DNA of 64,000 nt from a virus (taxonomy: Duplodnaviria > Heunggongvirae > Uroviricota > Caudoviricetes): the IMG/VR virus record IMGVR_UViG_2839610755_000024; one strand, given 5' to 3'. Below, in pieces: positions 51,001 through 54,000 of the stretch. A program made the position numbers. Each line of letters starts with the position of its first letter. Position 1 is the stretch's first letter.

Positions 51001-54000
51001 GCCGGGGATTTTTTCTTTGTGATTTCATCAAGCGCATACTTAAAAGCCCTGCTAATCGGACTGATGTCTGATGCCATTCCGAAAGCACACAAGACCGAAG
51101 CAATAAACCGCCAGTCCGTTCTGCTTATCTTCGATTCATGACAGCCAATCATCTTTGCCAGACCGCGCTGTGTAAGCGTTGACAGGTTGATGAGTAAATC
51201 TGTTTCTGCGCGATCAACGTCGCGCTGTGATAGTTTGCTGTAACTTGTTCGTTCCATTTCTTAAGATTTCCAATAGTGAATAGTTAGTTGAAAGGTATGC
51301 GTGGAAACGCATATGGCCTTAGTTGGTCAGATATCTTGGGACTCGCTTTTCAGCGACGTAGGACGAATGTCCGTTGTTACAAAGAGCGGCTCCGCTTATT
51401 AAGCGGCTTTGTGCTCCGGCGGGAACACGTCATCAAGACTTACTTTTGCGCCTAACTTGTTTAGACACGCAACAAGAGCACGGCATGTTTTAAGGTCTGG
51501 GAAGCGACGACCAGATTCCCAATGTCCGATAGCTCCCTGTGTGCATCCAACTGCCTTAGCAAGTGTTGTTTGAGAGATATTCAGTGACTCTCGATATTTT
51601 CGTAGGTTGCTCATATGCCCTCCATAGTAACCACGAATAAAAAATACAATATGTACTTCTCAAATACAAGTAAAAATACACATTGTGCATGGATGGTTCC
51701 AGTACAGAGCGTAATAATAAGGACATGAAAATGAAATGGTATGAACTGGCTAGATCCAGAATGAAAGAGCTCGGCATAACTCAAGAGAAGTTAGCCGAAG
51801 AGCTAGGTATGACGCAGGGTGGAATTGGACACTGGTTGCGCGGATCTCGTCATCCATCTCTTAGTGATATTGGTGTGGTGTTTAAATACCTTGGTATTGA
51901 TAACATATCATTCAACCACGACGGGACATTTTCACCTGTTGGCGAATACTCATCGGCCCCAGTTAAAAAACAATATGAGTACCCTGTTTTTTCTCATGTT
52001 CAGGCTGGGATGTTCTCTCCAGAACTCAGAACCTTTACCAAAGGTGATGCGGAGAGATTGGTAAGCACAACCAAAAAAGCCAGTGACTCTGCATTCTGGC
52101 TTGAGGTTGAAGGTAACTCAATGACCGCACCAACAGGTTCCAAACCTAGTTTTCCTGACGGGATGTTAATTCTGGTTGACCCTGAGCAAGCTGTTGAGCC
52201 CGGCGATTTCTGCATAGCCAGACTTGGTGGTGATGAATTTACCTTCAAGAAACTGATCAGGGATAGCGGTCAGGTGTTTCTACAACCACTAAACCCGCAA
52301 TATCCAATGATCCCATGCAATGAGAGTTGTTCCGTTGTGGGGAAAGTTATCGCCAGCCAATGGCCTGAAGAGACGTTTGGGTAAAGAGGATAGATGGAGT
52401 TTAATGGCCATGAGTATCAAGCGGTCAAAAAGAAGTTCATCTATTCATTGAAAGCATAAGGCCATCTGAGTATATCCGTAATGATCTGGATATTGTCTAT
52501 AACATCAATGACCGGACGATAGATATCGGTGAGCAGCGTCCTGTATGGCAGGGTGAGGCAGGTGAAAAAACGTCCTGCCATCAACAAGAATCAAGTGCAT
52601 CCGCTCTCTGGACAGATGGAAAATTTATTGGATGCAAAAAGATATGAAATAACACCTGTATAGCACGGAGCTTTCTCTGACCGATGCACTTGAAGTTGTT
52701 AGGGCTGACCCAGCCTGCTGTTTCTTTAGGTAAGAGAAAAGAGATTTAGGAGATGAAAGGTCGCAGAGGTGCGGCCTTTTTTATTGAGAGTGGATCTTGA
52801 ACGGAAATTCTCAAGACTTGAGTCTTGCATGCAAATCAATTCCTGGATAAACTCGATCTGAGTCAATAACTTAGAGAGAGAGCAAATGGCAAAGTCAAAC
52901 GTTAGCGTGCAGGCATTCAAGGACTTCCTTGAAGAGCTTATGTCGCTGAACATAATGAAGGAGGCCACCGCTCGAAATTTAAAAAACTCATCCGCTCGCC
53001 TCTTAACGGTAGTCCAAGAAGAGGAAATGGGTGATGTTACTCAGCTTGATGTGAATGAGCTTGCCGAGCGATACATCAACGCAACTGAGCCGAAGCCTAG
53101 CGACAGCAGCATTACTGCATATAAAAGCCGCATGGAAAGTGCAATCAAAAAGTTTGTAGCTTTCCAGTCTGGTGAAGAAATCCCATACACTCCGATTGAC
53201 AAAGAATCCAGTGAGGAAAAAGATTTGACTGGCGAACCAACAAAAGTCGAAGGCAAGGCTAATGCACTTCATACCTATGATCTTCCAGTAGTTCTTCGAC
53301 CTGAATCAGGGGTTACAGTAACGATTAAAGGCATTCCTAACGATATCACAAACGAAGAAGCCGAACGCATCTCTTCAATTCTGAAGGTTTACGTTCGGCC
53401 TCAATAATGCAAAAGCATTCAGCACAATGTCCAACTCCCCAGTCCGACATTGATGCTGTTTAACCAGAGCCTCCAAAAGGAGCCCTTGTTAAGGTACACA
53501 ATATTTGCGATGTAACCTTAGCGCGTCTGGTACATTTTTTCAAGCGGTTGTAGGGCTGCCGCCAATATGAGAAAACACAGATGTCTACATACAATTTGAA
53601 TGACCAATTCGATCGAGAAGTTCATGTGAATGCCTATGAACGGATAAGGCATGGAAATCTTGAACATGTGTGTGAGCATTATCGCTCAAGGCCACACCGC
53701 TAATCATCAACCCGGCCTCCATGCCGGGTTTTCTTTTCCTCTCGCCCAAAAAAACACATAACCAATTGTATTTATTGGAAAATAAATAGATACAACTCAC
53801 TAAACAACGCAATTCTGATCTCTCCTTACATCGCCGAGGCAATACACCCACGCTAAAAAACAATACTATTAAATACAAAGCGTTGTAAAAAAACGCCCCG
53901 TTTTAGAACAAATTGTATTGACCAAGTGAAGTACATATCGTACTATTTAACCATCAGCAGGACGCTGGAAGCCAAATGGAACAGACTGGCAGGCTCTTTA

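Follow-up and report, generated by a model that had tools for sequence, protein, structure and literature searches.

We describe a two-gene cassette located between the repressor gene cI and the leftward operators and promoter (oL/pL) of the prophage contained in the 64,000-nucleotide virus record IMGVR_UViG_2839610755_000024 (hereafter the window, to which all positions refer unless another genome is named). The window is a lambdoid Shiga toxin 2 (Stx2) prophage of the VT2-Sakai/Sp5 type, presented in reverse orientation. The reference O157:H7 outbreak strain carries Sp5/VT2-Sakai as its Stx2 phage, and products of the repressed Sp5 prophage can affect the stability and spread of the toxin phage and its competition with other phages. 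The cassette is a moron in the slot used by rexAB, stk, and bstA, and it lies outside those families, outside the tyrosine recombinases, and outside the known defence and toxin-antitoxin families. The reading that we favour, although at slightly less than an even chance, is that it is an autonomous moron whose first gene, ECs1184, encodes a non-enzymatic binding protein expressed in the lysogen and accessory to the CI switch. Its genes have already been catalogued and briefly discussed in print; what is new here is the fold assignment of ECs1184, the size and architecture of its family and the charge inversion of its linker, together with the terminator-to-terminator borders of the cassette, the DUF3024 pseudogene that precedes it, and its apparent separability from the CI switch. 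The elements of the cassette are the following:

52759-52782, plus strand: rho-independent terminator t1, the 5' boundary of the cassette and a recombination junction.
52812-52827, no strand assigned: 16-bp palindrome CAAGACT-TG-AGTCTTG overlapping the -35 hexamer, a candidate operator.
52825-52853, plus strand: predicted sigma-70-type promoter (-35 TTGCAT, 17-nt spacer, -10 TAAACT).
52886-53407, plus strand: gene of 173 amino acids (aa), H0093 / ECs1184 / Sp5 ORF23, family phrog_2602.
53420-53458, plus strand: stem-loop directly after the ECs1184 stop codon (folding free energy about -18 kcal/mol, z-score -3.3).
53581-53703, plus strand: 40-aa gene H0092 (formerly ECs1183), family phrog_21154.
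53709-53738, plus strand: right-hand terminator, the counterpart of lambda tImm, at which the variable slot ends on the right.

The surroundings that define the slot are:

51731-52384, plus strand: cI repressor gene (Peptidase_S24 and HTH_3 domains; named cI in AP000422), the left border of the variable slot.
52394-52733, plus strand: DUF3024 pseudogene, with about 82% identity to an intact 113-aa gene of phage JLK-2012.
53872-53946, plus strand: oL operators and pL (from the AP000422 annotation, the operator sequences, and a promoter scan).
54136-54408, plus strand: N (N_peptide, E-value 3e-32).

The positions of cI, oL/pL, and N identify the interval between them as the rexAB-equivalent cargo slot, as an earlier reading of this DNA made from the sequence alone (the original prediction) had proposed. 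The promoter scan placed pL at 53918-53946 (TTGACC-17-TACTAT), and in the deposited annotation nutL lies, with oL and pL, just downstream of the two cassette open reading frames (ORFs). The stretch 52385-53940 is 100% identical in VT2-Sakai, Nil2, Stx2 II, 1717, 2851, and the PA phages, and 220 complete Escherichia coli genomes match it over at least 80% of its length. The region between cI and N has been described as a common accessory locus, holding for example bstA or rexAB (PMC7067206).

Both borders of the cassette are strong hairpins, in agreement with the two terminators of the original prediction. In t1, a hairpin at 52759-52776 is followed by a T6 run (-15.9 kcal/mol, z-score -4.0), and in the right-hand terminator a hairpin at 53709-53730 is followed by a T-rich tail (-14.3 kcal/mol, z-score -4.8); none of 200 shuffled sequences folded as well as either of them. 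A simple terminator scan detected the second and missed t1, which we accept as a terminator because its hairpin, GGTCGCAGARRTGCGGCC, and the T-run recur at the 5' edge of every cassette that was compared (10/10 loci, from E. coli, Salmonella, Proteus, and Serratia). On the right, 53709-53824 is 87% identical to lambda 35708-35826, the tImm region of lambda just downstream of rexB, and this homology spans the hairpin and about 90 bp past it. On the left, homology to the Salmonella prophages begins at 52758 and homology to the 933W-type phages stops at 52777.

The comparison of the cI-N interval across phages, called for by the original prediction, revealed different cargo between the same breakpoints. 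The prophages of E. coli DE17 and A65EC encode a CI identical to that of the window (217/217 residues), with the same oR operators and nearly identical oL operators, and their DNA matches the window up to 52382, at the cI stop codon, and resumes at 53708/53709, the first base of the tImm-like hairpin. Unrelated genes are thus found behind identical CI, and the slot is a hotspot for cargo. In DE17 the slot encodes a 185-aa hypothetical protein and a DUF1828 protein (locus L029, 4194-5500) and in A65EC a 126-aa hypothetical protein (L030, 4221-4601), all of them further uncharacterised candidates for functions expressed in the lysogen. Conversely, the Salmonella prophages and phage vB_SosS_Oslo share 52758-53735/53739 with the window at 85% identity, from terminator to terminator, behind repressors that are about 75% identical to the window CI or unalignable with it, and diverged cassettes occur in Serratia and Morganellaceae prophages behind other repressors and with other Cro, replication, and N modules. 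The cassette is found in prophages of at least seven genera of Enterobacterales, and in Salmonella, Proteus/Providencia/Morganella, and Serratia it is always located between cI and N on the cI strand. With terminator-to-terminator homology behind different repressors, and unrelated cargo behind an identical CI, the unit is therefore a mobile cassette whose two terminator hairpins serve as recombination borders in a known cargo hotspot. Furthermore, as identical CI and the same operators work with other cargo, the cassette is not part of the CI switch and appears to be separable from it. In two Salmonella loci (L023, 3736-4773, and L024, 3118-4155) an extra 345-aa gene, with no Pfam domain and followed by a tImm-like hairpin of its own, stands between cI and the ECs1184 cassette, and therefore the slot can stack several cassettes.

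The original prediction had also described the interval as an autonomous unit, and its order (terminator, predicted promoter of its own, two genes, terminator) is consistent with that description. The predicted promoter lies about 30 nt before the ECs1184 ATG, with a predicted start near 52860. Hexamers with the 17-nt spacing are present at orthologous positions in four genera (in Proteus TTGCAA/TAGAAT, in Serratia TTGACT/AAAAAT) while the spacer sequence is divergent, and the promoter is followed by a conserved leader, CAATAACTTAGAGAGA. This comparative evidence, which is not proof, suggests that the cassette promoter is conserved across genera. Since neither pL nor pR is directed towards the cassette, and cI is separated from it by t1, its expression would be uncoupled from the repressor transcript and from the lytic programme. 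The palindrome over the -35 hexamer, whose arms are kept in Salmonella, does not resemble the CI operators; the cassette promoter lacks their consensus, AATACA-N5-TGTATT, and control of this promoter by CI was rejected on that ground. We also rejected the palindrome as a site repeated elsewhere in the phage, as it occurs once in the window and one match is expected by chance. At the position of the stem-loop that follows ECs1184, Proteus and Serratia have a different hairpin. In the Salmonella loci L003 and L021 (about 4160-4200 and 5532-5570, respectively) the stem is kept and the loop ACTCCCCAGT is replaced by its reverse complement, ACTGGGGAGT, which amounts to a small inversion inside an inverted repeat. 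A search of 51300-54700 against Rfam 15 at a permissive threshold returned a GadY-like match as its sole result (20 bits against a gathering score of 45, E-value 0.9), and the known prophage small RNAs (the anti-sRNAs AgvB and AsxR and the Pas sRNAs) were discarded as candidates, their loci being in the late region and not at the cassette.

ECs1184 is, as had been noted from the sequence, an acidic 173-aa protein (isoelectric point 4.85), acidic throughout and with a net charge of -4.5 in its N-terminal domain. The original prediction could not assign it to any family, but it belongs to phrog_2602, a family of unknown function, with residues 1-173 aligning to profile positions 1-173 (E-value 3.5e-102). 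It consists of an N-terminal domain (residues about 8-95), an acidic disordered linker (about 101-128), and a beta-beta-alpha C-terminal domain (about 129-168). The AlphaFold (AF2) model shows four helices in the N-terminal domain, with a predicted local distance difference test score (pLDDT) of about 90, then the disordered linker (residues 102-127 in the model) and a beta-hairpin plus helix; in the latter domain the pLDDT is 91, so that the fold is confident, but it is unmatched. Phage_int_SAM_1 aligned to residues 12-93 below threshold (E-value 0.047), and sub-threshold matches were obtained in 8 of 43 family members, the best with an E-value of 3.6e-4. By model and profile, the N-terminal fold therefore looks like the core-binding (SAM-like) domain of tyrosine recombinases. 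We considered and rejected the possibility that ECs1184 is itself a tyrosine recombinase because the catalytic domain (R-K-H-R-H/W-Y, PF00589) is missing: there is no PF00589 match and the protein ends at residue 173 after the 45-residue beta-beta-alpha domain. No enzymatic, membrane, or nucleoside triphosphatase (NTPase) domain was found in ECs1184, searches of NCBIfam models, PADLOC models, and PDB sequences, made with the single sequence and with a profile, gave no match, Foldseek found nothing significant among viral structures, and the C-terminal domain alone was unproductive as a query for other domain architectures. The profile hidden Markov model and structure searches that had been proposed for this protein hence gave it a family and a core-binding-like fold, but no match to a defence family.

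Close homologs of ECs1184 (41-99% identity) were found only in Enterobacterales. A profile search of 1.84 billion representative proteins retrieved 654 clusters, 243 of them below an E-value of 1e-10, all of about 160-200 aa and with the same layout, and many of these relatives are alphaproteobacterial 'hypothetical proteins' with no Pfam domain. ECs1184 thus points to an uncharacterised family of about 650 clusters for which there is no Pfam model. The linker varies across the family; conservation is strong in both domains, which are under purifying selection. In E. coli the gene is intact in 242 of 242 copies from 234 complete genomes, which are largely clonal O157:H7. When the linker charge was compared in 306 relatives, it was acidic in the 47 close, prophage-borne homologs (median -4, 2% positive), and the other 259, all distant, had a basic linker (median +3, 89% positive). 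The distant homologs are mostly solitary chromosomal genes, and among the loci examined they have no constant neighbour: one locus, at the end of an island, has Rep_trans and an integrase, one has DUF5343/Hypoth_Ymh, two have VapBC-type genes, and two have lepA. The last two, in Sulfitobacter (L017, 7001-7576) and Neorhizobium (L026, 6001-6558), are convergent with lepA, and from the recurrence of this arrangement in two alphaproteobacterial genera, some members of the family may be chromosomal genes inherited vertically rather than mobile ones.

The second gene, H0092, had been put forward only as a possible 40-aa ORF, and it now looks like a real gene. Beyond its match to phrog_21154, six of its changes relative to Salmonella are synonymous (among them AGG to CGA, both Arg), and the three other differences are two amino acid replacements and a one-codon extension; furthermore, P2-like phages of Ralstonia encode its core motif VHVxxYxRxRxGxLExVCEHxRSxP with 57% identity, at a position downstream of their genes for an XRE repressor and ImmA. 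The small gene at this position belongs to phrog_33859 in Proteus and is a CxxC peptide without a PHROG match in Serratia. In Ralstonia phage YO034_1 (L025, 705-2196) tandem ORFs of 42 and 36 aa, assigned to phrog_33859 and phrog_21154, come after the genes of an XRE repressor and of an ImmA-type metallopeptidase, on their downstream side. Because these are the PHROG families that follow the ECs1184 homologs in Proteus and E. coli, respectively, they suggest a recurrent class of small repressor-adjacent proteins.

The 375 bp that follow cI had been regarded as non-coding and as an eroded predecessor, and they hold indeed a decayed DUF3024 (PF11225) gene. Relative to gp23 of JLK-2012 the remnant carries two 1-bp deletions (near 52425 and 52568) and has no intact frame, its longest ORFs being of 43-44 aa against about 113 codons in the intact gene. 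Intact DUF3024 is the first gene after cI in the 933W-type phages and in Morganellaceae prophages, and in Proteus/Providencia/Morganella prophages it is located immediately upstream of the ECs1184 homolog, which is probably the ancestral arrangement. Our search for literature on DUF3024 found nothing.

The cassette was thought to be undescribed, but its ORFs are H0093 (173 aa) and H0092 (40 aa) of VT2-Sakai in the deposited annotation, the former being ECs1184 in the Sakai chromosome, and ECs1184 appears in two papers; a search for literature on it beyond these two found nothing. Mondal et al. (2016) made 43 in-frame deletions in an MG1655(Sp5) lysogen, in which ORF21 (ECs1180) and ORF23 (ECs1184) could not be deleted; they inferred lethality and a role in stable lysogeny and found no conserved domain in ECs1184 (PMC5155283). 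ECs1184 is thus among the very few Sp5 genes reported as impossible to delete. [quoted passage not shown] With respect to the deletions, the window carries a copy of IS629/IS1203 at 54573-55881, flanked by a 4-bp target duplication, which cuts the ECs1180 (H0090) homolog after 35 codons (interrupted ORF at 54467-54574), and at least three more complete genomes of O157:H7 (7409, F1273, and TX 376-2) have the identical junction. Natural strains can therefore do without one of the two 'non-deletable' genes, and the failure to delete a gene in that study is no proof of essentiality. Because both failed targets flank pL-N and the constructs carried that region, a cis effect or a cloning problem is a plausible alternative. 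Taking into account also that identical CI and operators work with other cargo, we hold the essentiality of ECs1184 as unproven.

According to the reading that we favour, the cI transcript would run into the decayed DUF3024 gene and then t1; behind t1 the predicted promoter would drive ECs1184, followed by the stem-loop, H0092, and the lambda-tImm-like terminator, so that the unit would be transcribed in the lysogen regardless of the level of CI and of the lytic programme. ECs1184 would act stoichiometrically, its target being occupied by it and consisting of a nucleic acid or of a protein that handles nucleic acids, probably as a dimer formed through its C-terminal domain, and the palindrome over the -35 hexamer could be an autoregulatory site. 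Because the linker switched from basic to acidic across the whole prophage clade, the prophage version may compete with, or act as a decoy for, the target of its basic-linker relatives. Several observations weigh against this picture. A direct binding to DNA is hard to reconcile with an N-terminal domain whose acidity (-4.5) is unusual for a DNA-binding core-binding domain and with weak crosslinking: the RNA crosslinking of ECs1184 in a polynucleotide kinase (PNK) assay was no better than that of the sfGFP control (PMC7618764). The Pfam core-binding matches are all below threshold, the hexamers of the E. coli cassette fit 7 of 12 consensus positions and were missed by the promoter scan, and the failed deletion of ECs1184, if biological, would make the gene more than accessory (PMC5155283). 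In a bolder version, which we consider decidedly unlikely, ECs1184 would found a 'core-binding-only' class devoid of a catalytic domain, whose basic-linker chromosomal members bind nucleic acid and whose acidic prophage clade is a decoy or dominant-negative form blocking a DNA transaction of the resident prophage or of a competitor, such as a step in replication or one performed by a recombinase. If so, ECs1184 would be indispensable in the Sp5 lysogen and would hence affect the stability of the Stx2 phage. As for the final output of the cassette, our estimates assign the largest share, short of a half, to a regulator or modulator of DNA transactions, a smaller one to exclusion or defence, a minor one to an Sp5-specific stabiliser of the lysogen, and a marginal one to an addiction module.

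The original prediction saw here an exclusion or defence function, in which ECs1184, with or without H0092, would be made in the lysogen and block superinfecting phages like RexAB, Stk of 933W, or BstA do. We find this somewhat unlikely, and it is a possible reading drawn entirely from position. The cassette does occupy the classic exclusion slot, with lambda tImm kept at its right edge, in a region that is the common accessory locus mentioned above and where the 933W-type phages hold DUF3024, a RuvC-like gene, and stk; behind identical CI the content of the slot is hypervariable, as the cargo of an arms race would be; the unit appears autonomous and expressed, judging from its predicted promoter and the TRAPP recovery (PMC7618764); and some of the distant relatives are located beside VapBC or DUF5343/Hypoth_Ymh genes. 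However, neither ORF matches any of 5027 PADLOC models (PADLOC-DB 2.0, E-values up to 1) or the defence families of Pfam and NCBIfam, ECs1184 lacks an enzymatic, membrane, or NTPase domain, its distant relatives are mostly solitary chromosomal genes that are twice convergent with lepA, and a plain defence gene should be easily deleted, whereas the deletion of ECs1184 failed (PMC5155283). A second alternative is the proposal of Mondal et al. (2016) that ECs1184 maintains lysogeny in Sp5 specifically, Sp5 being induced or lost without it and the mutants being unrecoverable; possibly, the core-binding domain without a catalytic partner would block a recombinase or another DNA transaction of the prophage. 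The in-frame deletion unobtainable in MG1655(Sp5) (PMC5155283), the intact state of all 242 copies, and the recombinase core-binding-like fold are in line with it, but those copies are largely clonal, prophages with identical CI and operators exist without ECs1184, its homologs stand behind unrelated repressors, replication modules, and integrases, and the deletion data are open to the objections raised above from the IS629 insertion in ECs1180 and the location of both targets around pL-N. We regard this proposal as unlikely.

An addiction pair would also explain a gene that is reported as non-deletable (PMC5155283): the acidic ECs1184 would neutralise a toxic H0092, or another Sp5 product, and repress its own promoter through the palindrome, and the loss of ECs1184 alone would be lethal. 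A two-gene unit with its own predicted promoter, a palindrome over the -35 hexamer, and an acidic first product combining a putative DNA-binding domain with a second small domain fits such a scheme, which we nonetheless judge very improbable. The two genes are separated by 173 nt with a strong hairpin, the small partner varies by clade (phrog_21154, phrog_33859, or the Serratia CxxC peptide) while the C-terminal domain of ECs1184 is nearly invariant, Ralstonia phages encode the small proteins in the absence of ECs1184, the distant homologs have no conserved neighbour, and H0092 is not hydrophobic and has no similarity to any toxin family. Accordingly, ECs1184 and H0092 are not the tightly coupled pair with a conserved partner expected of a type II toxin-antitoxin system.

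In lambda, rexAB is co-transcribed with cI from pRM/pRE and is also transcribed from pLit. The cassette shares with rexA-rexB its slot between cI and oL/pL, the cI strand and, according to our reading, expression in the lysogen, but it is placed behind a terminator with its own predicted promoter; its proteins are unrelated, it has no RexB-like membrane partner, its ORFs gave no Pfam or PHROG match to the RexA and RexB families, and only the terminator region aligns with lambda. With the 933W-type cargo it shares the slot, the DUF3024 sequence, and the hairpin after it (about 82% identity), although DUF3024 is intact in those phages and a pseudogene in the window, the RuvC-like gene and stk are replaced by ECs1184 and H0092, and a T-run follows the hairpin only in the window, making it a terminator. 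BstA of the Salmonella prophage BTP1 is likewise an accessory product made in the lysogen, and its gene directly follows the repressor gene, within the cI-N region (PMC7067206, PMC8585504); no homology between it and the cassette was detected, and bstA is transcribed from the cI promoter (PMC7067206/PMC8585504) while the cassette is split from cI by a terminator.

Morons of lambdoid phages, as presented by Juhala et al. (2000) in the citation of PMC4104026, are promoter-gene-terminator units located between genes that are contiguous in relatives. The cassette is similarly inserted between genes whose interval is differently filled in close relatives, it ends in the 53709-53730 hairpin homologous to lambda tImm, its G+C content is low (44.5% against 50.7% for the phage), and the recovery of ECs1184 from lysogen cultures is indirect evidence of expression from the prophage (PMC7618764). 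Unlike usual morons, both of its terminators double as exact recombination borders, and the upstream one insulates it from the repressor transcript. With regard to the protein itself, the core-binding domains of tyrosine recombinases (PF02899; 3nrw, IntI4, lambda Int, and XerD) are 7-16% identical to ECs1184, which differs from them in its acidic N-terminal domain fused to a disordered linker and a beta-beta-alpha domain instead of a catalytic one. The integrase-fold regulators MrpR of SPbeta (8a0a) and SroF of phi3T (9rd5) retain a catalytic-like domain next to the core-binding one and are the master repressors of their phages, whereas ECs1184 has the core-binding-like part alone and stands beside a conventional CI.

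Two further genes of the immunity region precede cI on the opposite strand:

50961-51257, minus strand: cII.
51399-51614, minus strand: cro.

The longer stretch 51001-54572 is 99.66% identical to VT2-Sakai (L001), with about 12 differences, and as 52385-53940 is 100% identical these must lie in the cII-cro-cI part or in the N part. Finally, a 60-aa ORF (53976-54158, plus strand; ECs_5705 in RefSeq) is located between pL and N, overlapping the nutL region and the start of N; the annotations of the DE17 and A65EC prophages include it as well (WP_000438342.1).

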